Position numbers and translations under genes: made by a program
In this document: one piece after another, positions 1 through 44,724 of the stretch
Numbering within the stretch: position 1 is the stretch's first letter
Layout: each line of letters begins with the position of its first letter
Notes under the pieces: model-generated
Database searches by the model: none
What the model saw: only the letters and a program-made list of their open reading frames with translations
What the model was told of the DNA's origin: nothing
Origin: Chloroflexota bacterium
GTDB taxonomy: Bacteria; Chloroflexota; Dehalococcoidia; UBA2247; RBG-13-53-26
Length of the DNA stretch: 64,000 bases
Assembly: GCA_016876035.1 (NCBI GenBank)
Contig: VGOE01000001.1
Span: 27,264 to 91,263 of the forward strand
Reading direction: 5' to 3'

Positions 1-1103
1 TGCGCTTGTGCCTCGACTGCGGCAAGTGTACCGTTGTCTGTCCGGTTGCCCAGTACGACCCAGATTTCAACCCTCGCCTGATAGCACAGAGAAGGCTGGG
101 GCGGCGCAAGAACAACAGTTCGCAAGATGCGACAATCTGGTCCTGCCTTAGTTGCCACCTGTGCGTGGAGCGCTGCAATTACCGCGTGGCTTTCCCCGAG
201 TTCATTAGCGCTTTGAGGTGGGAGGCACGGAGCGCAGGATATGAGGTCAAGTGCAGCCACGGCGGGGCGCTCCAGGCACTGATGCACATGATGGCGCGCA
301 AGGAGCTGCGCCAAGATCGTCTGGGCTGGCTGCCGCAAGAGATCAGTTTATCGAGTGACTGCGACACGCTGTTCTTTGTCGGCTGTGCCCCATACTTCGA
401 TGCTATCTTCAGTAACCTTGGTCTGAGTTCGCTGGAAAGTGTGAAAGCAGCACTGAAACTGTTGAACCGCGCCCAAGTGCCCTTTAAGCTACTGGACAAC
501 GAACGTTGCTGTGGGCGCGATCTTCTTCTCCAGGGGGACAGAGACGGATTCTTGGGAGTGGCACGAGCCAACATGGAGGAGTTCGCCCGCCATAATGTCA
601 GGAAGATTATCACTAGCTGCCCCGAATGCTACTACACACTGAAAGTGGACTGGCCAAAGTTTCTGGGGGACATGGGAATTCAGGTCTGGCATCTGATGGA
701 GGTTATGGCACCCCTGGTGCAGAAAGGCAGCCTGAAGCTGGGGAAGCTCGGCAATCGAATCACCTATCACGACCCCTGCACGCTGGGAAGGTGCAGCGGC
801 CTATATGACGAACCGCGCAACGTTCTGAGGGCTGTGGGTGGGCTGGAACTGGCCGAGATGGAGCAAAGCCGCGAGAAATCCCTGTGCTGTGGGGCCAGCC
901 CCTGGTCGCACTGCGGCGCAGTCAACCGGCGGGTACAAGAGCGGCTACTGGCTCAGGCGAAGGCCACCGGCGCGGAGCTACTGGTGACCGCTTGCCCCAA
1001 ATGCCAGATACATCTGAAGTGTGCTCAGAAGGCTGGCGACGCAAAGATTCCTCAGCTTGACATCAAGGATATGGCTACTGTATTGGTTCAGTCACTTGAC
1101 TAG
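1..1103 (+). CDS. HdrD-like (HdrC/HdrB fusion) iron-sulfur oxidoreductase. It has two 4Fe-4S ferredoxin motifs followed by two cysteine-rich CCG domains. The 5' end probably lies upstream of the window.
   Basis: The ORF is open to the window edge. It contains CGKCTVVCP and CLSCHLCVERC ferredoxin-type motifs. It then shows CCG-like motifs (FVGCAPYF, NERCCGRD, ITSCPECYY, YHDPCTLGRC, SLCCGASPW, LVTACPKCQ). It sits directly upstream of hdrA. Confidence 0.7.
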   Translation, partial: RLCLDCGKCTVVCPVAQYDPDFNPRLIAQRRLGRRKNNSSQDATIWSCLSCHLCVERCNYRVAFPEFISALRWEARSAGYEVKCSHGGALQALMHMMARKELRQDRLGWLPQEISLSSDCDTLFFVGCAPYFDAIFSNLGLSSLESVKAALKLLNRAQVPFKLLDNERCCGRDLLLQGDRDGFLGVARANMEEFARHNVRKIITSCPECYYTLKVDWPKFLGDMGIQVWHLMEVMAPLVQKGSLKLGKLGNRITYHDPCTLGRCSGLYDEPRNVLRAVGGLELAEMEQSREKSLCCGASPWSHCGAVNRRVQERLLAQAKATGAELLVTACPKCQIHLKCAQKAGDAKIPQLDIKDMATVLVQSLD

Positions 1104-1115
1104 GAGGTAAGGCAA

Positions 1116-3575
1116 ATGGCAGGAGAAGAACTCAGGATAGGCGTGTTCGTCTGCGATTGCGGGCTCAACATCGCAGGCGCGGTGGAGACTGAAGAGGTCA
1201 GACGGGCGGCCGAAGAACTTCCCAATGTTGTGGTCTCGGTGAGAAACAGGTATACCTGCGCTGACCCAGGACAGGAGGAAATAAAAAGGCACATCCGAGA
1301 GCATAGACTGAACAGAGTAGTGGTAGCATCCTGTAGCCCACGGCTTCACGAACCGACGTTTAGACAGTGTGTTGCTGAGGCTGGAGTGAATCCTTACCTG
1401 GTCGAGATGGCCAATATAAGGGAGCAATGTAGCTGGGTGCATTATGATAACCGCGAACAGGCAACACTTAAGGCTAAAGATACTGTCAGGATGGCAGTGG
1501 CCAGGGCGCGTTACCTTCAGCCAGGGTTCGAGACTGACATCCCTGTCAAAGATGCGGCGCTAGTGATCGGAGGTGGGGTTGCCGGGATTCAGGCCGCTCT
1601 GGATTTGGCCGATGCCGGTCATATGGTCTACCTAGTGGAAAAGCAACCCACTATCGGCGGCATAATGGCCCAGTTGGATAAGACCTTCCCTACCATGGAC
1701 TGCTCCATCTGAATACTAGGCCCCAAGATGGCGGATGTCGGTCGACATCCTAGGATCAAGTTGATGACCTTGAGTGAAGTGGAGAAGGTGTCTGGACACA
1801 TTGGGAATTTCAGGGTGAAGGTGCGCCAAAAGGCGCGGTACGTCAATGAAAAAGAGTGCACTGCCTGCAGCAAGTGCGCCGAAGTGTGTCCGGTGGTAGT
1901 CCCGGATGAATTCCAGCAGGGCTTTTCTTCACGTAAGGCAATCTATATACCCTACCCACAGGCAGTGCCCTCCGCCTATCTCATCGACATGGAGCACTGC
2001 CTGGGCAACAACCCGGTAGCCTGCGATAAGTGTATGGACGCCTGCGAGAAGCAGTGCATAGACCTGAACATGCAGGACAAGGAAGTAGAACTCAACGTGG
2101 GTGTCATAATCGTGGCCACGGGCATGGGAGTGTATGACCCCACCGCCCTGGATGAGTACGGCTATACTCGCTTTGAAAACGTTATCACTAGCCTGGAATT
2201 TGAAAGACTGATAAACGCTGCTGGGCCTACCAAAGGTCACTTGGTACGTCCTTCAGACAGGCAGACCCCCAGGCACATCGGCTTCATTCAGTGTGTAGGC
2301 TCACGAACGGAGAACCGTGGCAACCCCTACTGCTCCAATGTATGTTGCATGAATACGGTAAAGGATAGCTTGCTGATCAAAGAGCACAATCCAGATACGG
2401 AGATTTACGTTTTCTACATGGACCTCCGCACCTTCGGCAAGGGTTTTGAGGATCTGCTGAGGCGTTCCAAAGAGGCAGGTGTTCACTACATCCGCGGCCT
2501 CCCTGGCGAGGTGACGGAAGACCCTGCCACCAGAGGCCTTTGTCTAAGAGTAGAGAATACCACCACAGCTCGGGTCGAGGAATACGATCTGGATATGGTT
2601 GTATTGTCCGTCGGTCTGGAGCCGGCCCAGGATCTGAAGCGGCTGGCCAGCCTGCTCAATCTCTCTCAAACGCCCGACGGTTTTGTGATGGAGTCTCATC
2701 CCAAGCTGCGGCCAGTAGATGCACCCACACCGGGAGTTTTCTTCGCCGGCTGCGTCGAGTCGCCCAAGGACGTAAAAGACAGCGTCACCCAGGCAGGAGC
2801 CGCTGCTGCCAGGAGTGCCATCCTGTTGAACGCCGGCGCTGTCAAGAGCCAGGCCATCAAGGCGATGGTTGACCTGACCAACTGTACCTCCTGCGGAGTC
2901 TGCGCCCGCGTCTGCCCCTACGGGGCTATAACAGTAGATATTAAGGCGAAGAGAGGAGCAGAGGTAGTGGCCGCAGCCTGCGCAGGCTGCGGCACCTGCG
3001 CTGCAGAATGCCGTTTCGACGCCATAACCATGCAGCACTTCACCGATGCGCAAATACTGGCCCAAGTAAACAGTGCCCTGGAAGAAGATCCAGAACAGAA
3101 GATACTGGCCTTCCTCTGCAATTGGTGCAGCTATGCTGGGGCCGACTTGGCAGGATTATCAAGATTGAAGTACCCAGCTAATACCCGTTTCATCCGTGTC
3201 ATGTGCAGCGGGCGAGTGGACGAGAGCTTCATATTGAGGGCCTTCGAGAAAGGCGCTCCTGTAGTGCTGCTCTCCGGTTGCCACCTCGGAGACTGCCACT
3301 ACATCAATGCCAACCACTGGACTATGCGCCGTGCCGATAAACTGTGGGATCGCCTGGAAAAGCTGGGAATACGGCCAGAGCGGCTACAACTGGAGTGGGT
3401 TAGCTCTGCCGAGGGCGCTAGATTTGCTCACATCATGCGCGGCCTAGAGGAGATGCGCTGCAAGGTTACAGCCAACGAGATAAACCATTCCAGGAAGGTG
3501 CTGGCCGAATATAGGCTGTCAAGGGAAGCTGAGGAAAGCAGCGAGGACAGGGAGTCAGAGGCATCAGAGGTGTAG
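1116..3575 (+). CDS. hdrA: Heterodisulfide reductase subunit A (HdrA) fused to a C-terminal MvhD domain. It is a predicted selenoprotein with in-frame TGA at 1710-1712 read as selenocysteine.
   Basis: Two ORFs (1116..1712 and 1728..3575) share one frame and are separated only by TGA. The TGA falls in ...TMDCSI-[TGA]-ILGPKM..., where HdrA normally has a conserved Cys/Sec. The N-terminal has an FAD-binding [10 protein letters not shown] motif. Ferredoxin Cys clusters follow. The C-terminal ~140 aa ([15 protein letters not shown]...[11 protein letters not shown]) is MvhD-like. An AGGAGG RBS precedes the ATG at 1116. Confidence 0.75.
1733..1750 (+). promoter_or_regulatory. Putative bacterial SECIS-like hairpin about 20 nt downstream of the in-frame UGA of hdrA.
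   Basis: GGATGTCG-GT-CGACATCC is a perfect inverted repeat starting 21 nt 3' of the TGA at 1710-1712. Flanking ctagg/cctag could extend the stem. Confidence 0.4.
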
Positions 3576-3581
3576 CATCAG

Positions 3582-3713
3582 ATGGAACAGCGGCTAAAAT
3601 GCCTTCGTTGTGGCTTTGAATACACCGTGAGAGTGGAGCCGGACGAAGCTCCGCGGGACAGGGTTTGTCCCAAATGCCGGTCCAACAGCGTTCGCAAGAT
3701 TTCTTCTAAATAG
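3582..3713 (+). CDS. Small zinc-ribbon protein of 43 aa with a CxxC...CxxC pattern. It is not in the supplied ORF track because it is under 60 aa.
   Basis: The ATG at 3582 lies 7 nt after the hdrA stop. The translation is MEQRLKCLRCGFEYTVRVEPDEAPRDRVCPKCRSNSVRKISSK and has two CxxC pairs. Confidence 0.4.
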   Translation: MEQRLKCLRCGFEYTVRVEPDEAPRDRVCPKCRSNSVRKISSK

Positions 3714-6584: not shown

Positions 6585-9242
6585 ATGCGCAGGAATTCAG
6601 TCAAGAAGACGCTTCCTATCCTGTTGGTGCTTGCTCTGCTGACTCTGGTGATACCGCCCGTGATAGCGCCTGTAAAGGCAGAGGGAGAGGAAGCGATATC
6701 CAGGCCGGGCGAATACAGCGGATACTCTGAGCCAATCTATGACGAGTGGGTTCGCTCCTCTCAGTACGTTGAGGTGCGAGATGGCACGAAGCTAGCAGTG
6801 GACATCTTTCGTCCCTCCGTGGATGGAGTGCCAGTAGATGAACCACTGCCCGTGGTCTGGAGCGCGGAGCGCTACCTTAGGGCATCCCACACTCAGCAAC
6901 TGATAAGAACCACGCTCGATGCATACCCGTATCTGACGACACTGCTCAAACATGGATACGTGGTGGCGGCGGTGGAGGTGAGAGGTACCGGTGCTTCCTA
7001 TGGAGTCTTCTCCGGGGGTTGCGACATGACCGAGGCCTATGACCACTACGACATGACGGAATGGTTTGCGGCACAGGAATGGTGCAACGGCAACGTAGGC
7101 ATGTATGGTGCCTCCTACCGGGGAAACAACCAGTACTGGGCGGCCATGACTGCCCCGCCGCACTTGATGTGCATCTTTCCCGAAGTAGCTCCGTTCGATG
7201 GCTTCTTTTCGGGCAGCCCGAACGGGATATTCTGGGACCAGTTCCTCAAGAACTGGGATGCAATGACTAGGGCGCTGGACTTGAACCTCTACGGCATAAC
7301 GGTTCGAGTTGATGAGGACACCGACGGGTCAATGCTAGCGGCGGCCGTTGCGGAACACGTGAACAACGTCAGCACCTATGCGGTTGCCCAAAACATGCTG
7401 TACCGTAATACCTGGAATCCGGTTACGAATGTCCCCACATTCTTTACCACTGGCAATACTTTCCTTGACTTGGTGCAGACGTCTGACATTCCTGTCTACC
7501 ACTGGACGGGCTGGTTCGATTACTTCGTCTTCCATCAGCCCACGTGGTTCGCCAACCTGGACAATCCCCAGAAGATGACCGTTGGGCCCTGGATCCATAA
7601 GAGTCGTGGCGATGTCAGTTTCCTCGCCATCGAGCACCTTCGCTGGTACGATTACTGGCTGAAGGGGATCGACAATGGTATAATGGATGAGCCGCCTATC
7701 TACTACTACACGATAGGTGCCCCTGAGGGCGAGGAATGGCAGTTTGCCTGGGAATGGCCGCCCCACGGGACAACACCGAAGACATACTATCTCGGCGCGG
7801 GGCCATCGGACAGCGTGAATTCAATCAATGATGGCTCATTGAGCCTGACAGCACCTGTATCGGCCGCCGGCCAGGACGACTACACTGTGGACTATAGCAC
7901 GACCGAGGGCCCGAAGGATCGGTGGACAGCAAACACGCTGGACGACCTTCTGACCGACTTCACTCCTCTCGATGAGAAATCCCTTACCTATACCACCGTG
8001 CCTTTGAGTACAGACGTGCAAATCACAGGCTATCCCGTGGTGTATCTCTGGGCCTCTTCCACCGCCACAGACGGAGATTTCTTCGCCTACCTGGAAGAGA
8101 TTGATGAGAATGGCGTATCCACCAACGTCAGCGATGGATTGCTCCGGGCCTCCCATCGGTCGGTCAACACACCACCGTGGGACAACCTGGGGCTCCCCTG
8201 GCATCAAAGCTATACAGGAGACATAGCCGAGATGCCCGTCGGAGAACCGGTATTGCTGGCCTTTGCGCTGGCCCCCACTTCGAATGTCTTCGATGAAGGG
8301 CACCGCATTCGGTTGACGATCACCTGTGCTGACTACGCTGACATGTTTGATACGCCAACGTTGGATCCCGCGCCGACGGTCAGCGTATACCACAACGCCG
8401 ACTACGCCTCATACATCAGTTTACCAATCATGCTGGCACAGCCTGCAGTGACCGCGGTAAGCCCTGATTCTGGCAACCAAGGGGCGACCCTCGATATCGC
8501 TATTACGGGCAGCGATTTCGGCGAAGCCACAGAGGTAAGTCTTGGTGCTGGTATAACTGTGAATAGCTTTACGGTGGACAGTCCCACCCAAATAACGGCC
8601 AATGTCACTATTGATGCCGCGGCGACAACCGGGATACGGGATGTCTCGGTTACTACCCCAGGAGGGACCGGCGTACTGCCGGGTGCCTTCACGGTGATGC
8701 AAGCTCAACAGGCTGCGATAACTTTAACTCCTGATACTGGGGTTGGGGCTGTGACCGTTTCCGGCACTGGCTTCGCGGCCAACAGCACGATTACGATAAC
8801 CTGGGACGGGACTCTAATGCCAATGGTTCCACTAACTGCGCCAACAGGGGAGGATGGAAGATTCACCGCTATTATTAGCGTGCTGACCTCGAGTGTTCCG
8901 GGCGAGCATACGGTTACCGCGACTGACGCAGCAGGTAGTTCGGCATCGGCGACCTTCACCGTTGTGGAGATGACGGGGCCTACAGGACCGGCTGGTGCTA
9001 CTGGGGCAACTGGGCCACAGGGGCCTGCAGGACCGGCTGGTGCTACTGGGGCAACTGGGCCACAGGGGCCTGCAGGACCGGCTGGTGCTACCGGGGCAAC
9101 TGGGCCACAGGGGCCTACAGGGCCGACTGGACCTGAAGGCGAAACCGGATCGGCGGGTGGCGTGGGCTTGTCTATTGCTGCCATAGTGTTAGCAGTAATT
9201 GCCGTTGCTGGCGCCGGGTACGCTCTGGCCACGAAGAAGTAG
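6585..9242 (+). CDS. Secreted, membrane-anchored CocE/NonD-family (S15 X-Pro dipeptidyl-peptidase-like) hydrolase. It has Ig/TIG-like domains, a collagen-like Gly-X-Y repeat and a C-terminal TM helix.
   Basis: There is an N-terminal signal peptide ([23 protein letters not shown]). The CocE/NonD core reads [16 protein letters not shown]...GVVWSAERY...GASYRG. TIG-like segments read [21 protein letters not shown] and [17 protein letters not shown]. Then comes [22 protein letters not shown] x3 and a hydrophobic tail [25 protein letters not shown]. Confidence 0.75.
8984..9118 (+). repeat. 45-bp tandem repeat of three units encoding a collagen-like triple-helix segment ([15 protein letters not shown] x3).
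   Basis: Units at 8984-9028 and 9029-9073 are identical. The third unit at 9074-9118 has two mismatches. Confidence 0.9.
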
Positions 9243-9788
9243 CGGCCAAGTATTGTTGATGAGGCTGTCTAAGAAGCTGTTTTTGCTGGAGGGTAGTCAA
9301 TGGCCAGTTATTAGCTTTTTGGCCTGAACTTCGCCGGGCGAAGGGCTGAAAAACACGAACAGAAAGGAGGGATGTAAGAAGGACGCAGAATGTGCTGATT
9401 CTGTCTACATTCAGGCAGGAGATCAGAAATTCGAAGGAAATCAGAGAGAGGTTGTACCCCATTGCGGAGAGAATGCCAGGTAAAGTGGTGGCTACATGGT
9501 GGCATACATTTCTGTGCGTGAGTCGTGCCTATTTCAAACCCAAATCAGGGGGAAGTTTGGCCTAAAGCAGATACTCCAGGCTGTCCGTTTCCGTGAGTTC
9601 TCCGACGTCCTCAACATCTACCGAAGCCACCCCTTGTGGCGGGGGGTTGAGGAAGAGGGGTGGTTAATTGTGGTACGGAATCCGATCGGCGGCGAGCATG
9701 ACTTTATCAAGAGGCTAAAGGGGGTGATAGTTGAATGAGATAGGTTATAATCATTAGATAAAGCCCATAGGATCAAGCGACAAATCTT

Positions 9789-11027
9789 TTGAACATGGAG
9801 GTAAGTAAGATGAGCAGTATTTGGAAGAAGGCAACCATAGTCCTGCTGGTCCTGGCTCTTGTAGCCGCGTTCGGCTTTAGCTGTGGCAATGGAGAAAAGA
9901 AAACGACAACGATCATTATAGGCGCCCACCTGGATCTTACCGGGCCCGCTGCACCTGCACTTACTCCCGGCCGGATGGCGCTGGAGGATGTGGTGAGGTA
10001 TTGCAATGATGAAAACCTCATCCCGGGAGTGAGACTGAAGGTAGTCTTTTATGACGGGAACCTCAAACCTTCCAGGGACGTGCCCGGTTGGGACTGGCTC
10101 AAAAATAAGGGCGCACAAGTAATCATCACTGCCATTCCCTTCACCACGCTGACGCTGAAATCCTTTGCTGAGCGGGACCGCGTGCCAATCATCAGCCTCA
10201 GTAACACCGAGGCCTTTCGAGTGCCGCCGGGGTGGGTATTCTGCCCGCCTCCTTCATTCGGCGACCAGGTAAAAACTGTCCTGGACTGGGTCGGCAAAAG
10301 CGACTGGACGGAAGCCCGCCCGGCCAGGATTGGCGTTTTCCAATGGGATGACCCGGCAGCAAAAGAAATCACGCAAAAGGTTAAGGACTGGTGTCAGGCT
10401 CACTCTGGCAAGTTTGAGTTCGTTGCCTCCGTTACGGCTCCCATGGGATCAATGCTGCTGGGTTCTGCTCAGACGGAGCCTCTGAAAAACTGTGACTACG
10501 TATTCTTGTTTGGTACCGGTGCACCCTACTTTATGAAGGCCTACCGCCAGGCAGGGCATACGGCGACGTTTCTTGGTGACAGTTCCATAAGCTCTAATAG
10601 TAACTTTCTAGGGAAATTGGTTGGCTGGGATGGCCTTGATGGGACCCTGACCGCTGAAATAGAGTACTGGTGGGACGAACAGCACGGAACGATCCCTCTG
10701 TCTAAAGAGCTTATTCAGAGATACCGACCCGGTGAGGCTAGCGACCTTATTGGTGGTGGGAAAAACTACAAAGGTTTCACTACTCTCTATATGGGCGTGC
10801 TCCAGATACTGGAGGCAGCAATAAATGAGGTGGGCATCGAGAATTTCGACGGCCAGGCCTTCTACAACGCCTGTCTGACGACCACGGTGCGCATTGATGG
10901 CTACCCGGATATGTCTTACGGCCAGACGAAACGCGAGAGCCTGGATTACATCAAAATCTATGAGTGGAAGGCCGATGGCGAGCATCTGGTTAGCCGCAGC
11001 GATTGGATACCGCTAATAAGAGAGTAG
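9789..11027 (+). CDS. ABC-transporter periplasmic substrate-binding lipoprotein (type I PBP, branched-chain amino acid Liv-like family).
   Basis: It has a signal plus lipobox (LVLALVAAFGFSCGNG). The size is 412 aa and the composition fits a type I PBP fold. A GGAGG RBS lies upstream. Confidence 0.7.
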   Translation: MNMEVSKMSSIWKKATIVLLVLALVAAFGFSCGNGEKKTTTIIIGAHLDLTGPAAPALTPGRMALEDVVRYCNDENLIPGVRLKVVFYDGNLKPSRDVPGWDWLKNKGAQVIITAIPFTTLTLKSFAERDRVPIISLSNTEAFRVPPGWVFCPPPSFGDQVKTVLDWVGKSDWTEARPARIGVFQWDDPAAKEITQKVKDWCQAHSGKFEFVASVTAPMGSMLLGSAQTEPLKNCDYVFLFGTGAPYFMKAYRQAGHTATFLGDSSISSNSNFLGKLVGWDGLDGTLTAEIEYWWDEQHGTIPLSKELIQRYRPGEASDLIGGGKNYKGFTTLYMGVLQILEAAINEVGIENFDGQAFYNACLTTTVRIDGYPDMSYGQTKRESLDYIKIYEWKADGEHLVSRSDWIPLIRE

Positions 11028-13302: not shown

Positions 13303-14493
13303 CTACCGCTGTTTGGGCAGTCCCAGGCCCTCCCTACCAGCAACATGATTCTTTGACGTCTCGGTCGTGCCGCCAGCTAGTGTGAAAGAGAGAGCGCTGA
13401 TATATGTGTGTCTGATCCTCCCACCTAGCCTAGCCCACTTGGAGTCCTCATTCAGCTGCCCGTAAAGTCCCAGTATTTGCATGCCAACGTTGCCCAGCCG
13501 CTGGCACGTTTGGCCACCATGGATCTTGATCTCGGCGCTGGTCTTCACTGTAGGCATGTCGTTGGCGGCTCTCCAGTTCAGTTCATGGCCCAAGTTCATC
13601 CCCATTTCGATCTCGATAGCCAGTTGCGCCAGTTTGTTGCGCAACAAGGGATCCTTGGAAAGCGGTTGCCCATCAATCATTGTCTCGTTGCAGTATCGCA
13701 CTAGCTGTTCCAGATACCTTTTGGCGTTGTAGATTGTAAGGAGGCCGTAGGTCCGCTCAATCCCAAAGGCGTGAAGCAACAACTGCCAACCGCCATTCTT
13801 CTCCCCCACCACGTTCTCCTTGGGCACCTTTACATTGTCGAAGAACACCTCACAGAAGGCAGGAATGCCAGTAGGCTGTGTAATTTGGCGAAGAGATATA
13901 CCCGGGCTTTTCATATCGACGATCATCGCCGTCAAGCCCATGTGCTTGTTGGTGGGGTCGGTGCGGGTGAAGACCATGACATAGTCGGCATGATGCGCGT
14001 TGCTGGTCCAGGTCTTCTGCCCGTTCAGGACGTAGCAATCCTTCTCCTCCGCCGCCTTCAACTGAATGTTGAACGTGTCTGTGCCAGCGTTCGGCTCACT
14101 CATGCCTGTGGCCCACTTCGTTTGGCCACGCGTAATAGGAATAACGTATTTCCTCTTCTGTTCCTCGGTGCCAAACTGAAGTATAAGGTCAGCCGAGGCA
14201 GGGGCCATGTCCATCGCTGGCGCACCGCGATAGGCGACTTCTTGCATAAAGATCGCTTCCTTCCAAACCGATGCCCCCTGACCGCCGTATTCCTTCGGCC
14301 ATGTTAGGCCGATCCAATTCTTTTCGCCACACTTGCGCCACATCCGCAAAGCCATCTCGTAATATTCCTCCCCTCGAGACTCTTCCTCAGGCCCTGGGTC
14401 TACTCCCAGCCAGCCGGGCGGGAGTTCGCGATCGAAGAACTCCTGTATTTCTTTTTGGAAAGCCTCCTCTTCAGGTGAGTAGCGAAAATCCAT
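13303..14493 (-). CDS. Acyl-CoA dehydrogenase.
   Basis: The length is 396 aa. ACAD N-terminal and middle domain motifs are present (GMSEPNAGTD, TWTSNAHHADY). It lies adjacent to etfBA. Confidence 0.85.
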   Translation of the reverse strand: MDFRYSPEEEAFQKEIQEFFDRELPPGWLGVDPGPEEESRGEEYYEMALRMWRKCGEKNWIGLTWPKEYGGQGASVWKEAIFMQEVAYRGAPAMDMAPASADLILQFGTEEQKRKYVIPITRGQTKWATGMSEPNAGTDTFNIQLKAAEEKDCYVLNGQKTWTSNAHHADYVMVFTRTDPTNKHMGLTAMIVDMKSPGISLRQITQPTGIPAFCEVFFDNVKVPKENVVGEKNGGWQLLLHAFGIERTYGLLTIYNAKRYLEQLVRYCNETMIDGQPLSKDPLLRNKLAQLAIEIEMGMNLGHELNWRAANDMPTVKTSAEIKIHGGQTCQRLGNVGMQILGLYGQLNEDSKWARLGGRIRHTYISALSFTLAGGTTETSKNHVAGREGLGLPKQR

Positions 14494-14879
14494 CGTTCCC
14501 CTTTCTGTCCCGTTGGTCCTATGGAGCGATCTTTTGTCTTGATTTGGTTAAGGTACTACTCTAAACAATGGCCGTCCGTGAGCGTCATTGCCTTCCGTAT
14601 CTGCCACACCTGTCCTATCACCTGCCCGTAATCCTTGTTTCGGCATCGAAGATACGAGTATCCAAGAACACCGACGCGACGCCTCAACTATGTCCTTTGG
14701 CTAGAGATATTCTACATGCGTGGCGGCTGCGATTCAAGGCGCAGCATTCGCGGCTCCGCAAGACACTCTCCAAAAGACTCAGAATGCTGCTGCCCATTCC
14801 GGGTTGCAATCTGTGGATAACGACGCCCAGCGTGCTATAAAGCAGCCTGGTACTCCCCCGAGCTCAAGTGTTTGATACG

Positions 14880-15785
14880 TTAGCCACGACCAGGTGGAGG
14901 CCCAGAGATAAGCTTCTTCTCTTTCAGAAACTGAACGAATCTCGATGCTACCGTCCTGGGGTCGCCTTCAAGCAAGCCACTGCTCGCCTTTTGGGCGATG
15001 CCTCCCGACATAATCAAACGCATTCGCTCTGCTGCTGAAAGGCTGCTATCCGGAGTGAAGAGCTTTTTCCCTCTGGGTTTGGGCGGCGCGATACTGACAA
15101 CCTTGGTCTTTGAACCTGCCAGGCCGACTTCATCAGGAACCAGATTGAGTGCCTGAAGATCGTATTGTTCGACCGTCTTCATAGAAGCTGCCAGTATGGC
15201 CCGAAGCTTCAAGTATCTGGGCGTATTAATGCCACTTTCAACAGTAAGCAAGGCAGGGAGGGGAGTTTCTATAACGGCTCTGTTCCCCGCTTCGAGCTTC
15301 TTGTGAACAATCGCTTTTTCGTGATCATGTACGTCAATCTTGACAACCTCGGTCACCAATGGGAGACGCAAAATCTGGGCTATTGTAGGGCCAGTCAATC
15401 CCGTGTTGGTGTCAATAGCACGTGCTCCACAGAGAATGAGATCGTACGGTAGCTTGAGAGCAGCAATAGCCTTTGCCAGCACGACCCCGGTAGCGTAAGA
15501 ATCAGAATTGTCAAGAGCGGGATCACAAAGAAGGATAGCTCTGTCGGCACCCATAGCCAAACAAGTACGCAAGACCTCTGTGGCTGAAGGTGAACCCATG
15601 CATAGAGCAGTGACTCCACCACCCCCACACATTTCTTTTATCAGTGTGGCCTCCTCTACAGCCAGCCTATCATAGGGGTTGAGCACGTCGGGCAGCCATC
15701 CCTTCCTGATATTGTTCGCGGCAGTGTCTACCGTGATCGGGCCCTCTGCGTCGGGGACCTGCTTAACGCACACTACTACTTGCAT
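14880..15785 (-). CDS. etfB: Electron transfer flavoprotein beta subunit.
   Basis: The N-terminus reads MQVVVCVKQVPDAEGPITVD. Confidence 0.85.
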   Translation of the reverse strand: MQVVVCVKQVPDAEGPITVDTAANNIRKGWLPDVLNPYDRLAVEEATLIKEMCGGGGVTALCMGSPSATEVLRTCLAMGADRAILLCDPALDNSDSYATGVVLAKAIAALKLPYDLILCGARAIDTNTGLTGPTIAQILRLPLVTEVVKIDVHDHEKAIVHKKLEAGNRAVIETPLPALLTVESGINTPRYLKLRAILAASMKTVEQYDLQALNLVPDEVGLAGSKTKVVSIAPPKPRGKKLFTPDSSLSAAERMRLIMSGGIAQKASSGLLEGDPRTVASRFVQFLKEKKLISGPPPGRG

Positions 15786-15815
15786 ACGAAACCTTTGCGC
15801 GCCGATTAAACCTCA

Positions 15816-16877
15816 CTAGCTCTGTCTGAGGCTTTCTTCTGCCGAAGCCTGCGAGATCATTATTAGCTCATTGGTCATGGCCGGCACTATCGTCAGAAGG
15901 TCACCAAGGATGCCCAGATCAGCCATGTTGAACATGGGTGCACTACGGTCTTTGTTGATGACAACTATTGTCTTGGAGTCTTTCATGCCCATAGTGTGGT
16001 ACACTGATCCCGATATTCCACAAGCGATGTACAGCTTTGGGGTGACGGTCTTCCCTGTTTGCCCAACCTGCTTGGTGGACGGAATGTACCCTTCGTCCAC
16101 AGCCATGCGAGAGCCGGCGACAACCCCACCCAGCACTTCTGCCAGTTTCTCCAGTAACCGGAAGTTTTCACGACTCCCCACCCCCCGCCCACCCGACACA
16201 ATGACGGGAGCCTCATCAAGGCTCATAGTCTTGGGGTCACCCTTGGCAAAACGCACCGCCTTAGCACAAGGCACGCTGGTATCCAATCGCGGGGCAACCC
16301 TAATGACCTCCGCTTGTCTTGTAACCTTGGCACGCTTTACATCCAGGACACCAGGCACGACAGTGGCAATCTGAGGCCGCGCTGTAGGGCAAATCACGTT
16401 AGCGCTAGCCTTATCTCGGTAGACAGGCTTTGTCTGCACCAGTAGCCCGTCTTCGCTCAGGGAGAGGGCAGTGCAGTTCGAGGCTAATCCTGTTTTCAAA
16501 GCGGCTGCCAGCCGGACGGCAATATCCCTGCCGAACGAAGTGGCACCACAAAGGAGTATCCGCGGCTTCCGCTCTCTTACAAGATTTGATAGGGCCTGCG
16601 CCTGGAATTCAACAGAGTTCTCCAGAAGAGGGCTATCCAAGAGGTATACCTTGTCTGCCCCATGCTCACTAAGCCTATTCACCAGTGCCGGATTGTCACG
16701 GCCTACCAGTACAGCAGAGAGTTCGTCACCAAGCCTGTCGGCAAAGCGGCGACCTTCGCTCAGCAATTCCAGGGAGACGTCACAGAGTCCCCCCTCATCA
16801 CACTCTGCCAGAACCAAAATGCCTTTGTCAGCCGACATCAGACCCCCCGGCCTCACACCTATTCCAACCCACGCCAA
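15816..16877 (-). CDS. etfA: Electron transfer flavoprotein alpha subunit. The true start is probably the internal Met at 16838.
   Basis: The C-terminal FAD-binding region reads SGSVYHTMGMKDSKTIVVINKD. MSADKGILVLAE is preceded by a G-rich RBS. Confidence 0.85.
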   Translation of the reverse strand: MAWVGIGVRPGGLMSADKGILVLAECDEGGLCDVSLELLSEGRRFADRLGDELSAVLVGRDNPALVNRLSEHGADKVYLLDSPLLENSVEFQAQALSNLVRERKPRILLCGATSFGRDIAVRLAAALKTGLASNCTALSLSEDGLLVQTKPVYRDKASANVICPTARPQIATVVPGVLDVKRAKVTRQAEVIRVAPRLDTSVPCAKAVRFAKGDPKTMSLDEAPVIVSGGRGVGSRENFRLLEKLAEVLGGVVAGSRMAVDEGYIPSTKQVGQTGKTVTPKLYIACGISGSVYHTMGMKDSKTIVVINKDRSAPMFNMADLGILGDLLTIVPAMTNELIMISQASAEESLRQS

Positions 16878-16916
16878 ACATATATGCCCCCTGAAACGGA
16901 GGTCAAACAGCAGAGC

Positions 16917-18866
16917 CTAGATGATTCTAGCCATCCTAGACGCCTCCAGGGTAGCATCAGGCAACCTTCTGACACCGTTGCAGTCGCCAACCCTATGAAG
17001 TTCCTTGACCTGCTCCTTGAGAGCATAGTAAAGCGCATTGTCTTCCTGACCACCGCAGGCGAGGATCACCGTATCAACCCCTTCAATGCGACGGTCTTGC
17101 AGCGTGAAGATGTTGGAGATAACCACCGTATTCCCGGTGATTTCTCTTACCTTGTGGCAGGGGGTGAAGGTAACACCATTCCGGTATAGCCGGCCGTAGA
17201 TCGTCTGCTTCTGCGGCGGATCGACGTGGATTCCTGCACTGTACTCTTCCGTGACTATCTCGACCTTCTTGCCTTGCTGGGCGCAGAAATCGGCCACAGT
17301 CAGGGCCTCCATATTCTGCTCACCGGCGATAACCACCACATTCTGACCAACCTGAGCTTTGCCCATCAGGACTTCCCTGGTCTCCACCACATTCTTCTGG
17401 TTCACACCCGGAATCCTGGGGATATAAGGAAAAGAGCCGGTGGCTACTACGACCGCGTCGGCGTTCATCTTCTTGACCATGTCTGCCGTAACCTCGACTC
17501 CCAGATGCACATCCACGCCCAGGAGTTTCATTTGGTGGGTCAAATATCTAGGCAACTCCAAGAAACCATCTCTCCCAGGAGCCTTGCCAGCTATCAATAT
17601 CTGTCCCCCTAATTCAGAGCCCCTGTCGTACAGAGAGACCTTGTGACCCCGCATAGCCAGAACTCTGGCTGCTTCCAGGCCGGCAGGGCCTCCACCAATC
17701 ACCACCACCTTCTTCTTCGTAGCTGCTGGCTGAACCTGTAGCCACCCCGGCTGGTACTCTCGCGTCACTTCGGCATTAACCGAGCAACGTATGGGCATCA
17801 TGGCCGAGGCATTCTTGATGCAGCCTTCGTTGCATCCCAGGCACTTGCGGATTTCCTCCACCCTCCCTTCATGCGCCTTATTGGGCAGTTCGGGATCGGC
17901 AATAGTAGCACGGCACATGTTCACGATATCTCCCTGACCGCTGGCGATGATTTCCTCCGCCTGGGCCGGGTCGATGATTCTGCCCCTGACCATAACGGGG
18001 ATCTTCACTACCTTCTTTATCTCCGCTCCAAGATACACAAAGGAGTTCAGAGGGAAATACATGGTCTCCGCCATGCATTGAATGGATCTATAGGTTGAGG
18101 CGGTAATGTCCAGGAAGTCAATTTTCCCTGACTTTGTCAATATCTGGACTATAGTGAGCATGTCGTCCAGAGTATAGCCGCCCTCGGTAAACTCATCACC
18201 GCTTATCCTGAGGCATACGGTGAAGTCACTACCCACTGCCGCTCTCACGGCGTCGATCACCTCAAGAGGAAAGCGCAGGCGGTTTTCCAGGCTGCCGCCG
18301 TATTGGTCAGTCCTAGAATTAAAGAAGGGTGACATGAACTGCTCGAGCATGTATCCATGGCCGGCATAGATCTCGAACCCGTCGTAGCCTGCTTCACGGC
18401 TTATCTTGGCGGCGAAGGCCCAGGCTTCGGTCAGCTCCTTTATTTCCTCAACAGTCATCACATGGGGCATACCCCAGTTGCGGGGGGACAGGAGTGGGGA
18501 AGACGACCAGGTGGTCAGACCGATGACCCTGGGAAAGTCCTGAGCGCCCTGGTTTCCACCCTGGACGATGATCTTGGCGCCGAACTGGTGAACCAGGTCT
18601 GCAGCTTTCTTAAGCTGGGGCACAGAATCCTTTTGATTGAAGACGTTCGCCCCGCAGCTCTTCTGGTGAAAGCCTAGGCCCTCCGTGATGATCAGTCCAA
18701 CGCCTCCCTTTGCCTTCGCAGCCCAATACCAGGCTAGCTTATCGCCCGGGAGATTGGTATGCTCCTCACGTATCCAGGTGCCGTGACCGGAGCTGGCGAT
18801 TCGGTTTCTCAGGGTTATGGTGCCGACCTTCAGCGGCGAGAAAAGGTTTGGAAATTGTTGAGCCAT
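16917..18866 (-). CDS. OYE-type NADH:flavin oxidoreductase fused to an FAD/NAD(P)-binding domain (2,4-dienoyl-CoA reductase or enoate reductase family).
   Basis: It has an Old-Yellow-Enzyme TIM barrel N-terminus (LFSPLKVGTITLRNRIASSGHGT). The C-terminal Rossmann motif reads KKVVVIGGGPAGLEAARVLA. It is a paralog of 61423..63417. Confidence 0.8.
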   Translation of the reverse strand: MAQQFPNLFSPLKVGTITLRNRIASSGHGTWIREEHTNLPGDKLAWYWAAKAKGGVGLIITEGLGFHQKSCGANVFNQKDSVPQLKKAADLVHQFGAKIIVQGGNQGAQDFPRVIGLTTWSSSPLLSPRNWGMPHVMTVEEIKELTEAWAFAAKISREAGYDGFEIYAGHGYMLEQFMSPFFNSRTDQYGGSLENRLRFPLEVIDAVRAAVGSDFTVCLRISGDEFTEGGYTLDDMLTIVQILTKSGKIDFLDITASTYRSIQCMAETMYFPLNSFVYLGAEIKKVVKIPVMVRGRIIDPAQAEEIIASGQGDIVNMCRATIADPELPNKAHEGRVEEIRKCLGCNEGCIKNASAMMPIRCSVNAEVTREYQPGWLQVQPAATKKKVVVIGGGPAGLEAARVLAMRGHKVSLYDRGSELGGQILIAGKAPGRDGFLELPRYLTHQMKLLGVDVHLGVEVTADMVKKMNADAVVVATGSFPYIPRIPGVNQKNVVETREVLMGKAQVGQNVVVIAGEQNMEALTVADFCAQQGKKVEIVTEEYSAGIHVDPPQKQTIYGRLYRNGVTFTPCHKVREITGNTVVISNIFTLQDRRIEGVDTVILACGGQEDNALYYALKEQVKELHRVGDCNGVRRLPDATLEASRMARII

Positions 18867-18951
18867 TTTATCTTCCTTTCTGTCTTAATTTTCGTTAACT
18901 CGGCCTCATCTAGCCAAACCGGGCTTGGCATTGATAATTGTCCGACCGCTC

Positions 18952-20550
18952 CTACAGTCCCACGGGGAACTTCCATTCCCCATAGACCTTCATCTGCACT
19001 CCAGCCATCTCCCCCAGGGTAGCCTTGGCGCGTGCTGCTTCCATTATCGCTGGATAAACGTTTTCGCTAGTGCGCGTAACCTGCTCCAGTTTTTCCAGGG
19101 CCCGGGCAACCTGGCTGTTGTCACGCTCCTTCTTAAACTTCTTCAGCTTCTCAATCTGGCGCCTCGGTGATTCTGGGTCCCATCTAAAAATGGGCACTGT
19201 GTACGGTGCCTTCTCCAGACGGAATTTGTTCACACCGACAACATTGATCTCACCGGTTTCCACTTTGCGTTCGCGCTCGAGCGTGGCCTCCTTATACTCT
19301 TTATGAACCCACCCAGAACTCATGGCTTTAGCCATTCCACCCATGTTTTCAATCCTAGTCACGTATTCCCAGGCACGCTTTTCCAACTCATTAGTGAGCG
19401 ACTCAACATAGTAAGAACCACCCAGGGGATCTATGGTGTTAGTCACATTGGTTTCAAGAGCAGCTATCTGCTCCGTTCTAATAGAAAGTAGCATGGACTG
19501 GTCTGTAGGCAGGCAGAGCCCCTCATCATATCCGTTGGCATGTATCGATTGGGCTCCGCCAAGAGCTCCAGCCAACACCTGATAGGCGATGCGGATGACA
19601 TTATTCAGGGGTTCTTGCGTCGTGTGAGTGGAACCAGCACTCTGGCAGTGGACGCGAAAGAGCGCAGAGCGGGGGTCTGTGATTCCATACCTTTCCCTGA
19701 CAATCTTGTACCACATGCGTCTGGCTGCTCTGAGCTTAGCTATTTCTTCAAAGAAGTCGTTATGTAAACTCATATCAAAAGAGATGCGCTTGGCTAAGCG
19801 ATCAAGAGGCACCCGGCCTCGTCGCTTCGCTTCATCGACGTATTGTAGAGCGGTGGCCATAAGCATACCCAACTCCTGGACTGCGTTCAGGCCCATATCG
19901 CGAGCATTGTAGGAGCCAAAGGAGACAGTGTTCCAACTCGGCGCATGCTCGCAGCACCACTCCATGAAATCCACAGCGTACCTTACATAGGCTTCTGGCG
20001 ATACCTGGTTTACCAGGTCCAGCACACTCCAGCTAAGCATGTCATTGACTGTGGTGCCCCGCAGTTGCTTTATATCCAGCCCTCTTCTCTCGGCCATGAC
20101 AAAGTACATCGCTGTCACGAAATTGCCGCAACGATCAGCGATGTATGTCGATGCTTTCTCTATAGGAAGACCTTCGAAGGTTGTTTCAACATCTTCCAGC
20201 GAGGATAGCGGCACACCGGCATGACCGATGTCAGCAGAAACCCTGGGGTCGTCAGCATCCATACCAGTCGCCGTCGAGATATCAGGAGCTATGGAGAACC
20301 CTGTCTGCCCCAAGGCATACTCTTCACGGTAGAGTTTGTTGGTTTCCTCTGGCGTGTTGAACCCGCTCAAGCGCCTTATGGTCCACAATTGGCCCCGATA
20401 CATGGTGGGATAGACACCCCGGGTAAAAGGCGGACGCCCGGGAAGCCCGAGATCCCTGTCATAATCGAAGTCCTGCAGATCTTGGGCAGTATAGATATCC
20501 TTTACAGGGATTCCGGATGCCGAGACGAGCTGTTCCTTACTATCTCCCAT
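18952..20550 (-). CDS. Acyl-CoA mutase catalytic (substrate-binding TIM-barrel) subunit of the methylmalonyl-CoA mutase family. No B12-binding domain is present in this ORF.
   Basis: The MCM family N-terminal reads GIPVKDIYTAQDL...RPPFTRGVYPTMYRGQLWTIRRLSGF. The 532 aa cover only the catalytic barrel. Confidence 0.8.
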   Translation of the reverse strand: MGDSKEQLVSASGIPVKDIYTAQDLQDFDYDRDLGLPGRPPFTRGVYPTMYRGQLWTIRRLSGFNTPEETNKLYREEYALGQTGFSIAPDISTATGMDADDPRVSADIGHAGVPLSSLEDVETTFEGLPIEKASTYIADRCGNFVTAMYFVMAERRGLDIKQLRGTTVNDMLSWSVLDLVNQVSPEAYVRYAVDFMEWCCEHAPSWNTVSFGSYNARDMGLNAVQELGMLMATALQYVDEAKRRGRVPLDRLAKRISFDMSLHNDFFEEIAKLRAARRMWYKIVRERYGITDPRSALFRVHCQSAGSTHTTQEPLNNVIRIAYQVLAGALGGAQSIHANGYDEGLCLPTDQSMLLSIRTEQIAALETNVTNTIDPLGGSYYVESLTNELEKRAWEYVTRIENMGGMAKAMSSGWVHKEYKEATLERERKVETGEINVVGVNKFRLEKAPYTVPIFRWDPESPRRQIEKLKKFKKERDNSQVARALEKLEQVTRTSENVYPAIMEAARAKATLGEMAGVQMKVYGEWKFPVGL

Positions 20551-20931
20551 ATTGCCAACCTCCCGTAAGATCAGAGTAGGCAGATCGGGTAATAAAATGG
20601 GCTAGCATCGATACACTACCACCACTTCTCACCAGTTACTGGGCGCGCGATATGCAAATCCCCTTCGACATTCACGGTTTCTCCACCCCCTAATTTGAAC
20701 CGTATCACAATCCGTTGCAGTGGTCAATAAGGATCGGAATCAATCGGGTACGATTCTACATGTACTGAGACGAGAATGTCTTTTCATAGAAAAAAACGGG
20801 TCTGCCAGCAGAATTTGAAGGGGGAGGAAGGAGCGAGCAGCATGTGGAGAAGAGGAGGTTATTTCCTGCAAAGTCTCACAGCCCCAAGCTGTACGCCTTT
20901 CTCCTCAACTCAGTAGTAAGCCTTTCTGAGT

Positions 20932-21243
20932 CTACCACGTATGGCTGATAGCTTCATTCTTGCAGGCGCTATGGCAGTTTACCTCCTTCCGGCTGCAAAC
21001 ACCATTGAATCCGGGACATACATATCCCACCCGTTTCCTCGTCTCCTCCTTAACAACGGCTACCACTTTGCCATAGTCATCTTCAGCTAGCTCAAAGATA
21101 TTCTCTGGACAGGCAGCTACACAGTCCCCGCATCCGTTACATTTGTCGGTATCGATGGTAATGAAATAGTCTCCGGTACCATCGGTATAGCCGTAGTTAG
21201 CTCTCACGTGGCCCTCCTTGCGACTCGGCCCTTTCTCGGGCAA
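20932..21243 (-). CDS. Small ferredoxin-like 4Fe-4S protein. The start may be the GTG at 21207.
   Basis: CNGCGDCVAACP is a ferredoxin motif and additional Cys are present. The longest ORF overlaps the upstream activase gene. Confidence 0.5.
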   Translation of the reverse strand: MPEKGPSRKEGHVRANYGYTDGTGDYFITIDTDKCNGCGDCVAACPENIFELAEDDYGKVVAVVKEETRKRVGYVCPGFNGVCSRKEVNCHSACKNEAISHTW

Positions 21244-21994
21244 ATAGAGCTGCCCCTAGTGCACCAATAATCTGGGGATCAGTAGCCAGCAAGGGTTCCA
21301 GACCTACTTTCTCTTTAACCTTGTTGACCATCCCGACATTCTTAGCAATCCCTCCGGTGATGGTAAAGTCCTTCTCTATTGATACCCTTTTCAGCAGATT
21401 GCGGCAGCGGACCGCTATGGCATCGTGCAGGCCGCTGAGGATATCGCCCTTGGGCACTCCTTTTTTCAATAGGGCTAGGGCCTCGGATTTGGCGAAGACA
21501 GCGCACACTGTGCTGAAAGGGAGGTCTTGCGTCGACTCCAGGGACAAGCTACCAATCTCATCCAGGGGCACCTGGAGCACATCGGCAATCATCTCTAGAA
21601 ACCGTCCGGTGCCCCCGGCACACTTGTCATTCATGATGAAGTTGGTCACCCGCCCCTGCTCATCGCAGTTGATGGCTTTGCAGTCCTGCCCGCCCATGTC
21701 CAGGATCGTCCTCACTGATGGGAAATACCAGTGGGCACCTCGCGCATGACAGGAAATCTCTGAGATATTGGCATTGGCAAACGGAACCAGAACCCTGCCG
21801 TACCCAGTAGCCACAATATAGCTAAAGTCCTTCAGGGACAGGCCGGTCCCTTTGAGCGCCTCAGCCATGGTGAGTTCGGCCGCCCTGACGCTTTCGGGAC
21901 CAGTGTCGCAAATGCTATAGGACAGCACGTTGCCATCCTCCATGATAACGCTCTTAGCACCCCGCGAGCCTATGTCTACGCCAGCTACAAACAT
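21197..21994 (-). CDS. CoA-substrate-specific enzyme activase (BadF/BadG/BcrA/BcrD/HgdC ATPase family).
   Basis: The N-terminal reads MFVAGVDIGSRGAKSVIMEDGNVL. There is a Cys pair for a bridging 4Fe-4S cluster. The size is 265 aa. Confidence 0.8.
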   Translation of the reverse strand: MFVAGVDIGSRGAKSVIMEDGNVLSYSICDTGPESVRAAELTMAEALKGTGLSLKDFSYIVATGYGRVLVPFANANISEISCHARGAHWYFPSVRTILDMGGQDCKAINCDEQGRVTNFIMNDKCAGGTGRFLEMIADVLQVPLDEIGSLSLESTQDLPFSTVCAVFAKSEALALLKKGVPKGDILSGLHDAIAVRCRNLLKRVSIEKDFTITGGIAKNVGMVNKVKEKVGLEPLLATDPQIIGALGAALFARERAESQGGPRES

Positions 21995-28271: not shown

Positions 28272-29443
28272 TGCGAGCGTATCTGAGGGCAAAGTGCGCA
28301 CAACTAGAAATTGAACTGAATCGGTTACAGGACTACATTGGCCAACAAGAACGGGATGCAACGCATCCCGTTCTTGTTTCTGATTTGAAAGACCACCTCT
28401 GCCAAATGCAGCGGCTGTGCCGACGGTTGTCCGCGATTGCTGAGAATCCCGATGCTGCTTTGTTGAAACGTGCTCATATGTACCTGAGAGATTACGCCTA
28501 TCTTCAGACATCTCTCAGAGTATGGTATCTCCCCGCATGCTTTTATGAAACGGATACGGATCGGCAATTTGGCAGAATCATACGGCACCTGAATAGTAGG
28601 CTTGGTGTGACGCCAATGGAAGACCTTATCGTATCCCACGGGCGCTTTTTCACTACCTTCCCTGGGATACTGAGAGCACCCATTTTCTACGTTCCCTTTG
28701 CTCAGCACCAGAGTCTTGGAGATCTTCCCGCTCTGTACCACGAAGTTGGGCATATTGTCTATCAACATAATCCGCTCTTCGCAACCGAACTCCAGGCAGT
28801 CGTGATCACCCACTACAGCGAGCTTGCGAGAAGAACTTCCCCTATTCCCAGTGTTCAGCAAGAAGAGCGTTTGAAAGCCCTTTCTTGGTGCGTTCAGTAC
28901 TGGAATTGGAGGAAGGCTATCCGAATACAAGAGCTGTTCTGTGATATTTTTGCAGCCAATGTCGTTGGTCCAGCCTTCATTTTCTCGTGGATAGACTTAG
29001 TTATGCGCCAAGCTGGAGAGCCATATCAGTACTCTGAATGCGACGAACATCCCCCGGATGGGTTCAGGGCAACAACCTGCTTCCAGGCGCTCCCAGCAGC
29101 ATGTCGGGATGCGCCACTAGTGGAATGGATGCAACAGGTGTTCACTCAGTATGTCAGCGGGAAACTTCAGCGGAGAGATCCGGTTCCCTACGCCATGCTG
29201 TGTTCAACCGAGCTTATGGAGAAATTGGTGAATAAGGTCAGCGAGCATCTGGAAAGGATTGGGGTACCGGTCTATGCAGGCCCGATCCCTGATCAGTCTC
29301 AGGCACAAGACTTTGCTGATGTGCTCGATCTTGAGGGACTACTTAATGCAGCAGTGGTGAAGCTGTTGGCTGACCCAAACGGCTATAATAGCTGGGAGTC
29401 CGAAATGGTCAGAAGACTCTATGCAGCGCTCCCAACAGCCTAA
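28271..29443 (+). CDS. Putative zinc metallopeptidase with HExxH-x4-H (HEVGHIVYQH). The family is unassigned and could be ImmA/IrrE-like or SprT-like.
   Basis: The motif is LPALYHEVGHIVYQHNP. The protein is 390 aa. Confidence 0.45.
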   Translation: MRAYLRAKCAQLEIELNRLQDYIGQQERDATHPVLVSDLKDHLCQMQRLCRRLSAIAENPDAALLKRAHMYLRDYAYLQTSLRVWYLPACFYETDTDRQFGRIIRHLNSRLGVTPMEDLIVSHGRFFTTFPGILRAPIFYVPFAQHQSLGDLPALYHEVGHIVYQHNPLFATELQAVVITHYSELARRTSPIPSVQQEERLKALSWCVQYWNWRKAIRIQELFCDIFAANVVGPAFIFSWIDLVMRQAGEPYQYSECDEHPPDGFRATTCFQALPAACRDAPLVEWMQQVFTQYVSGKLQRRDPVPYAMLCSTELMEKLVNKVSEHLERIGVPVYAGPIPDQSQAQDFADVLDLEGLLNAAVVKLLADPNGYNSWESEMVRRLYAALPTA

Positions 29444-31704: not shown

Positions 31705-31705
31705 C

Positions 31706-32641: not shown

Positions 32642-32654
32642 AACGCTTGCTGTC

Positions 32655-35685: not shown

Positions 35686-35694
35686 GGCGACTTC

Positions 35695-36030: not shown

Positions 36031-36061
36031 TTTACTTCCCTCGCAACATTCAGCTTCCCCT

Positions 36062-36289: not shown

Positions 36290-36295
36290 GATTCA

Positions 36296-44722: not shown

Positions 44723-44724
44723 GG

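Follow-up and report, generated by a model that had tools for sequence, protein, structure and literature searches.

The hdrA-mvhD gene and its in-frame TGA codon

The stretch of DNA analysed here (the window) comprises 64,000 nucleotides of contig VGOE01000001.1 from a Chloroflexota bacterium and carries close to its left end an hdrA-mvhD gene that is interrupted by a TGA codon. An open reading frame (ORF) of 198 amino acids (aa; 1116-1712) and an ORF of 615 aa (1728-3575) are located in the same frame, with the TGA at 1710-1712 between them. An earlier note on this DNA had described them as two HdrA ORFs in one frame parted by this TGA, and the translation agreed with that description. Reading through the TGA yields a complete gene of the HdrA2 type with 819 codons (1116-3575, plus strand), which ends with a TAG at 3573-3575. 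The TGA occupies codon 199, where a selenocysteine (Sec) is predicted (...TMDCSI-U-ILGPKM). Neither a second stop codon nor a frameshift was found in the 819 codons and both halves are otherwise intact. The ATG at 1116 is preceded at a distance of 8 nt by the Shine-Dalgarno sequence AGGAGG (1102-1107, plus strand).

Comparison with known structures and family models demonstrated that the two halves belong to one continuous gene. Residues 4-653 of the read-through product match the HdrA subunit 5odc_A in a single alignment spanning the TGA (E=1.6e-234), and residues 660-776 match the MvhD subunit 5odc_D (E=2.8e-40). The NCBIfam model NF040770 (HdrA2), which describes the HdrA-MvhD fusion, scored 1192.6 bits against a curated cut-off of 1100, again in one alignment across the TGA (residues 7-788). 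The HdrA portion (1116-3080, plus strand) consists of an N-terminal iron-sulfur domain, a flavin adenine dinucleotide (FAD)/thioredoxin-reductase-like domain and the inserted and C-terminal ferredoxin domains. Fused to its C-terminus is the MvhD/FlpD domain (3093-3452, plus strand; Pfam FlpD 2.9e-46 at residues 663-779). Gene callers split hdrA-mvhD into two ORFs at the TGA. The 198-aa N-terminal fragment is available in JGI/IMG and Logan only and not in NCBI; a neighbouring protein of the same contig is present in NCBI, where MBM4461774.1 from a Chloroflexi MAG has the identical sequence.

Position of the TGA within the HdrA family

HdrA is an established selenoprotein family of bacteria and archaea, for which 16 bacterial members had been counted by 2006 (PMC1794560; its long-established status is also documented in PMC13188914) and for which the motif is listed as CxxU (PMC9312934). 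In the window the UGA of codon 199 (1710-1712, plus strand) forms the CxxU motif C-S-I-U. Counting through the alignment with 5odc_A revealed that it falls on Cys197 (DCSIC) of the HdrA from Methanothermococcus thermolithotrophicus. The 120 best full-length homologues, which are Dehalococcoidia/Chloroflexota 'HdrA2' proteins with 74-81% identity to the window protein, all contain a Cys at this position (120/120, context DCSICVLGPKMMDVGRHP). The claim of the earlier note that the TGA occupies a conserved Cys/Sec site of HdrA is thereby confirmed. The UGA is located on the conserved Cys of the C-x-x-C/U motif of the HdrA selenoprotein family (COG1148), and the matches to 5odc_A, to the NCBIfam HdrA2 model and to the Pfam domains identify the protein as HdrA.

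In the structure 5ODC, Cys197 of one protomer ligates the N-terminal [4Fe-4S] cluster of the other protomer (PMC9012536). Judged from this homologous structure, Sec199 would take the place of this Cys and reach over the dimer interface to ligate the N-terminal [4Fe-4S] cluster of the second HdrA protomer.

A hairpin downstream of the UGA

The region downstream of the UGA contains the perfect inverted repeat GGATGTCG (1733-1740) and CGACATCC (1743-1750), which starts 21 nt after the A of the TGA. An 8-bp inverted repeat at this distance had been claimed before; repeat and distance were found as described, but eight pairs cannot form, since the eighth would leave a loop of 2 nt. In the formable hairpin 1733-1739 pairs with 1744-1750 (7 bp), and GGUC (1740-1743) is the tetraloop. 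Folding with RNAfold, as the earlier note had proposed, recovered this 7-bp hairpin both in the minimum free energy structure and in the centroid structure. On the basis of the fold and of the comparative data given below, we regard the element (1733-1750, plus strand) as a candidate bacterial selenocysteine insertion sequence (SECIS), with the stem 20 nt and the loop 27 nt after the UGA. The stem is encoded by the peptide D-V-G-R-H-P, which is conserved also in Cys-type proteins and predisposes the sequence to a hairpin. The amino acids fix only two of the seven stem pairs and the remaining pairs depend on the choice of wobble bases. A lower SECIS stem, for which a CUAG/CUAG pairing is possible in the window, was considered and dropped: it is not conserved, and RNAalifold on 91 sequences supports the upper hairpin only.

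The best known element of this kind is the SECIS of E. coli K-12 fdhF, where the sequence around the Sec codon reads TGACACGGCCCATCGGTTGCAGGTCTGCACC. Both elements are short hairpins in the coding sequence immediately 3' of the UGA and expose a GGUC apical loop. They differ in geometry. The loop starts at +31 in the window and at +22 in fdhF, which places the window loop 9 nt (three codons) farther from the UGA. In the window 20 nt instead of 11 nt separate the UGA from the helix, and all 7 bp of the stem are contiguous, with no counterpart of the bulged U17 of fdhF. In fdhF, G23 and U24 of the loop and the bulged U17 are conserved, U17 and G23 are contacts of SelB, and the minimal helix is located 11 nt after the UGA (PMC8659212). 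The E. coli-type geometry with a helix at this distance and a bulged U17 is not present in the window; this feature is specific to E. coli. Some bacterial SECIS elements lie outside the consensus model, which implies distinct classes (PMC9312934). By analogy, the window element would work like the fdhF SECIS without its exact geometry and would be bound by SelB. According to the E. coli paradigm, SelB carrying Sec-tRNA(Sec) would bind the mRNA hairpin 1733-1750 as the ribosome nears the UGA and would compete with release factor 2 to bring Sec into the A site.

Selection on the hairpin at the RNA level

The hairpin of the window, with the consensus GGAUG(U/C)C-GGUC-G(A/G)CAUCC at +24 to +41, is shared by 91 bacterial Sec-type genes, and the window carries this main-type consensus exactly. 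Pair 29-36 covaries among the 91 genes (C-G in 46, U-A in 33, U-G in 12 and no mismatch), and the replacement of Val by Ala is therefore coupled to the wobble base of the Arg codon. In an alignment of 95 sequences 98.3% of the cells are paired, compared with 23-57% when the 3' arm was slid, and the observed covariation score was reached by none of 500 shuffles. In the Sec-type alignment the third positions of the hairpin codons have an entropy of 0-0.5 bit, and those of the neighbouring Leu, Gly, Pro and Lys codons have one of 1-1.95 bit. This contrast within the same sequences indicates that the freezing of the codons is not due to shared ancestry.

To separate RNA from protein constraints we compared 90 distinct Sec-type genes encoding D-[V/A]-G-R-H-P with a control of 90 distinct Cys-type metagenome genes, which encode the same peptide but have a TGY codon where the Sec-type genes have TGA. 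The Sec-type genes use GAT for Asp in 89/90 cases, G(T/C)C for Val/Ala, GGT for Gly and CAT for His in 90/90 each, and CGA, CGG or AGG for Arg in 90/90. All seven stem pairs are formed in 81 of them and six pairs in the other nine; the apical loop is GGUC in 86/90 and GGUA in 4/90. In the Cys-type control the codons vary freely, with Gly encoded by GGT in only 14/90 genes. Here all seven pairs occur in 6/90 genes, the loop in only 13/90, and the combination of hairpin and GGUC loop in 0/90 (Fisher's exact p = 1e-32). The hairpin is specifically tied to the TGA form of the gene, is under selection at the RNA level and is not maintained in the Cys form. It lies inside the ORF 3' of the UGA, shows a conserved G/U loop and is under selection linked to the UGA, as expected for a bacterial SECIS. 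The earlier note had called the repeat compatible with such an element, and the TGA-linked hairpin, the covariation, the frozen synonymous sites and the fdhF-like GGUC loop bear this out. The comparison also yields a diagnostic signature for Sec-type hdrA in metagenomes, consisting of TGA-ATH and then GAT-G(T/C)C-GGT-CG(A/G)-CAT-CC from +25.

Deviating hairpins were found in a minority of the genes. In two Thermodesulfobacteriota genes the stem is re-sequenced to GGAGGCC/GGUCUCC with compensatory changes. A different GC-rich hairpin, UUGACGCG-GC-GCGUCAA with the loop GGC, is present at the same distance from the UGA in 15 genes of the Anaerolineae type (L002, L015, L027, L031, L036, L044, L052, L055, L063, L067, L086, L087, L093, L101 and L117), where the peptide reads V-D-A-A-R instead of x-D-V-G-R. 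This hairpin is a second SECIS solution within the same protein family. The copies from Asgard archaea are mostly without a stable hairpin at this place; in these archaea the SECIS is expected in the 3' untranslated region.

Sec-type hdrA genes in other genomes

One genome per prokaryotic species was searched for D-C-S-[I/M]-TGA-[I/V/M]-L-x-P-K-M, a degenerate pattern with TGA at this codon. At least 120 species genomes were found to have an HdrA gene of this kind, and every match listed is an HdrA. The hosts among the matches listed belong to Desulfobacterales, Syntrophobacterales, Anaerolineae, Chloroflexota, Zixibacteria, KSB1, Planctomycetota and Asgard archaea. The closest of them is encoded on the complete Dehalococcoidia chromosome CP070819.1 (L072). 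A tblastn comparison of this gene with the window protein gave one high-scoring segment pair of 802 residues with 81% identity, which runs uninterrupted across the TGA. A crude neighbour-joining tree built from 65 Sec-type and 30 Cys-type proteins groups the window with L072 as its sister. They adjoin the Cys-type Dehalococcoidia clade, and the whole group is nested among Sec-type proteins.

The codon after the UGA (1713-1715 in the window) is an Ile codon (ATH, with A at +4) in all 120 Sec-type matches listed (L001-L120). At the same position Val is encoded in 80 of the 90 Cys-type genes that share the downstream peptide. The Ile may reflect either a requirement of the UGA context or the shared ancestry of the Sec-type genes.

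Decoding of the UGA and alternative explanations

Taken together, these data make it very probable that 1116-3575 is one gene encoding an 819-residue HdrA-MvhD fusion flavoprotein of the HdrA2 type, in which UGA codon 199 is decoded as Sec. Selenium would then be incorporated at this residue and the selABCD genes would be expected in the genome. Several observations weigh against decoding as Sec. The closest full-length database homologues (the best 120) are all of the Cys type. The fold of 1707-1770 is no more stable than that of shuffled sequences (z = -0.56), so that stability by itself proves nothing. An Rfam search of 1600-1900 at E<=10 matched no family, and the hairpin lies 9 nt further from the UGA than that of fdhF and contains no bulged U. 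Finally, selA, selB, selD and tRNA-Sec are absent from the ~83 kb read, which comprise the 64-kb window and ~19 kb of flanks taken from sister contigs (8.9 kb to the left of the window and about 10 kb to its right). ARAGORN detected no tRNA-Sec in the window or in 20 related loci, and Pfam scans of 30 window ORFs detected no SelA, SelB or SelD. Sec-containing enzymes and SelB have been reported in Chloroflexi single-cell genomes (PMC4959059, PMC5736913).

The lack of sel genes and tRNA-Sec in these ~83 kb would fit a relic, in which TGA and SECIS were inherited intact by a lineage that has lost the Sec machinery and no longer expresses the full-length protein; bacteria have often lost selenoproteins and the Sec trait in the course of evolution (PMC1794560). 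We consider this very unlikely, as the gene shows no decay over its 819 codons and retains a full-length HdrA2 score, the hairpin is perfect and the neighbouring operon genes are intact. The homologues, all of them Cys-type, raise another question, because from the window sequence alone a recent TGY-to-TGA mutation would be possible. The gene would then be a pseudogene of a Cys-type hdrA with a recent TGT/TGC-to-TGA nonsense mutation, for which a single base change suffices, and the hairpin a by-product of D-V-G-R-H-P, as it may be in the six of 90 Cys-type genes that form all 7 bp by chance; the fold z-score, which is not significant, would agree with this. Such a recent mutation is excluded by the exact match of the window to the Sec-type synonymous-codon signature: every diagnostic site is present (GAT, GTC, GGT, CGA, CAT and the Ile codon ATH after the TGA). 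The hairpin with the GGUC loop is found in none of the 90 Cys-type genes, the tree places a second TGA-type gene from Dehalococcoidia as sister of the window gene, both halves are intact and score as one HdrA2, and the TGA is fixed in six independent assemblies, which makes a pseudogene highly improbable.

These assemblies also bear on the quality of the sequence. Eight contigs carry the 198-aa N-terminal ORF, and six of them, each from a different sample, were read (3 Logan SRA assemblies and 3 JGI metagenomes). The six contigs are 99.85-100% identical to the window, and TGA and hairpin are identical in all of them, which argues against an assembly error. UGA serves regularly as a stop codon in this genome, where 24 of 67 long window ORFs terminate with it. 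A scan of the window and the upstream flank for other ORF pairs bridged by a TGA returned hdrA alone; the other candidates were frames on the opposite strand or neighbouring genes that share a frame. In addition, the residue aligned with the TGA is Cys and not Trp or Gly. A sequencing or assembly error, or a code in which UGA is a sense codon for Trp or Gly, can for these reasons practically be dismissed. It would also be conceivable that translation stops at UGA 1710 and restarts at AUG 1728, and that the resulting polypeptides of 198 and 615 aa assemble into HdrA. Exactly these two ORFs are predicted by gene callers and the ATG follows 15 nt after the TGA; however, this ATG is the conserved internal Met of 'GPKM', which is found in all Cys-type homologues examined, and no Shine-Dalgarno sequence comparable to that of hdrA was found 5' of it. 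A break at this place would remove the cluster-ligating Cys/Sec and cut the FAD-binding domain, and the conservation of the hairpin at the RNA level would be left unexplained. A split gene is therefore extremely improbable.

Decoding of UGA 199 as Sec restores a complete subunit of the HdrA2 type for electron bifurcation and would imply the use of selenium by this Chloroflexota population. The gene adds a further member, probably mis-annotated so far, to the Sec-HdrA proteins, with HdrA2 fusion architecture and in a Chloroflexota/Dehalococcoidia-like lineage. The known picture is unchanged, as Sec-HdrA and bacterial SECIS hairpins inside the ORF are textbook cases, and the finding is correct but ordinary.

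Comparison with known HdrA proteins

The Sec-HdrA proteins of Deltaproteobacteria, Clostridia and Methanococcales belong to the same family and have the same C-x-x-U site as the window protein (PMC1794560, PMC9312934). The operon partners, MvhD/FrhD and a GlpC/HdrD-like iron-sulfur protein, are also alike. In contrast to these deltaproteobacterial, clostridial and methanogen hosts, the window represents a Chloroflexota/Dehalococcoidia-like metagenome-assembled genome (MAG), and its HdrA is fused to MvhD (HdrA2). Moreover, the nearby MvhD copies and the HdrD/GlpC-like protein are Cys and not Sec forms, judged by the lack of any other candidate read-through TGA. No hydrogenase genes are located adjacent to hdrA in the stretch read.

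All domains of the 5ODC HdrA, which originates from the HdrABC-MvhAGD complex of Methanothermococcus thermolithotrophicus / M. wolfeii, are also present in the window protein. The 5ODC protein has a Cys at the site and MvhD as a separate subunit, whereas the window gene has a Sec codon and a fused MvhD. The substrate of the window enzyme is not expected to be CoM-S-S-CoB. The Cys-type HdrA2 proteins of Dehalococcoidia MAGs show the same fusion architecture and 74-81% identity to the window protein. They read C-V-L where the window reads U-I-L, and their DNA does not maintain the hairpin.

One reading would join these parts, namely that the window gene and its sister on CP070819.1 are a Sec-retaining remnant of an ancestrally Sec-type HdrA2 lineage; it is plausible, although we lean slightly against accepting all of its parts together. 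The large Cys-type Dehalococcoidia HdrA2 clade may have arisen by conversion of Sec to Cys. The HdrA SECIS, which is nearly invariant across phyla, may in turn constrain the protein, with Val/Ala covarying with the wobble base of Arg. The Sec itself may not be a redox-active catalytic residue but may coordinate the [4Fe-4S] cluster of the partner protomer as a selenolate.

Genomic context of hdrA-mvhD

Directly upstream of hdrA-mvhD the window contains a gene for an HdrD/GlpC-like iron-sulfur subunit (3-1103, plus strand) with a CxxCxxCxxxCP ferredoxin motif and two CCG domains (Pfam CCG 2.6e-29, Fer4_8). Its 5' end is cut by the start of the window; the full gene encodes 379 aa (8849-9988 in locus L229). 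An HdrD/GlpC-like gene also directly precedes the Sec-type hdrA-mvhD in the Dehalococcoidia locus L072. Using the sister contigs, the gene order was extended to ferredoxin, 2-oxoacid:ferredoxin oxidoreductase alpha, beta and gamma, GltD/HdrA-like, MvhD, HdrD/GlpC-like and HdrA(U)-MvhD. The GltD/HdrA-like gene (4785-8342 in L229) encodes a protein of 1092-1185 aa with GltD/NfnB-like and HdrA-like parts, contains the HdrA N-terminal domain at residues 664-846 and is followed by the separate MvhD. The operon thus has two HdrA-like and two MvhD modules downstream of the 2-oxoacid:ferredoxin oxidoreductase. Such modules of 2-oxoacid:ferredoxin oxidoreductase, HdrA and MvhD serve flavin-based electron bifurcation in anaerobes. 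The upstream protein of 1092-1185 aa was considered as a second Sec protein and rejected; it is a distant paralogue and its gene contains no in-frame TGA. Directly downstream of hdrA-mvhD lies a zinc-ribbon ORF of 43 aa (3582-3713, plus strand; identified from the translation and a Pfam Zn_ribbon_8 match of 1.5e-6, below the gathering score), which may be the last gene of the operon.

Other features of the window

Further downstream, positions 6585-9242 encode an X-Pro dipeptidyl-peptidase-like protein of the S15 family, which has a signal peptide and a membrane anchor as well as a collagen-like G-x-T/P-G-P repeat in its C-terminal part. BLAST revealed an internal DNA repeat shifted by 45 nt within this gene (8975-9130). 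On the minus strand a cluster for anaerobic acyl-CoA metabolism extends from 13303 to 21994. It comprises an acyl-CoA dehydrogenase, EtfB/EtfA, a 2,4-dienoyl-CoA-reductase-like enzyme of the Old Yellow Enzyme type, a methylmalonyl-CoA-mutase-like large subunit, a ferredoxin and a BadF/BcrA-type ATPase.

The region 26000-48300 is an apparent integrated genomic island adjoining a tRNA-Met (48153-48227, minus strand). The island contains a DUF3854/DUF3987 primase-helicase-like pair (43487-45672), a terminase-like helix-turn-helix protein (40987-42132) and several defence-type genes. Beside the tRNA-Met a tyrosine integrase (46905-48082) is split over two frames, with the Arm-binding and SAM-like N-terminal domains at 46905-47306, ending with TGA, and the catalytic domain at 47375-48082; either a frameshift in a pseudogene or a sequencing error could account for the split. 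At 29440-32770 an Argonaute-like protein of 754 aa (weak Piwi match of 2.9e-5, below the gathering score) adjoins a PD-(D/E)XK nuclease (31706-32770), and the two may form a prokaryotic Argonaute defence pair. Genes for a DNA methylase (876 aa), a PglZ-like protein (weak match) and a DUF499 ATPase (863 aa) follow in a row at 33055-39821, an arrangement that resembles a defence module of the BREX or DISARM type.

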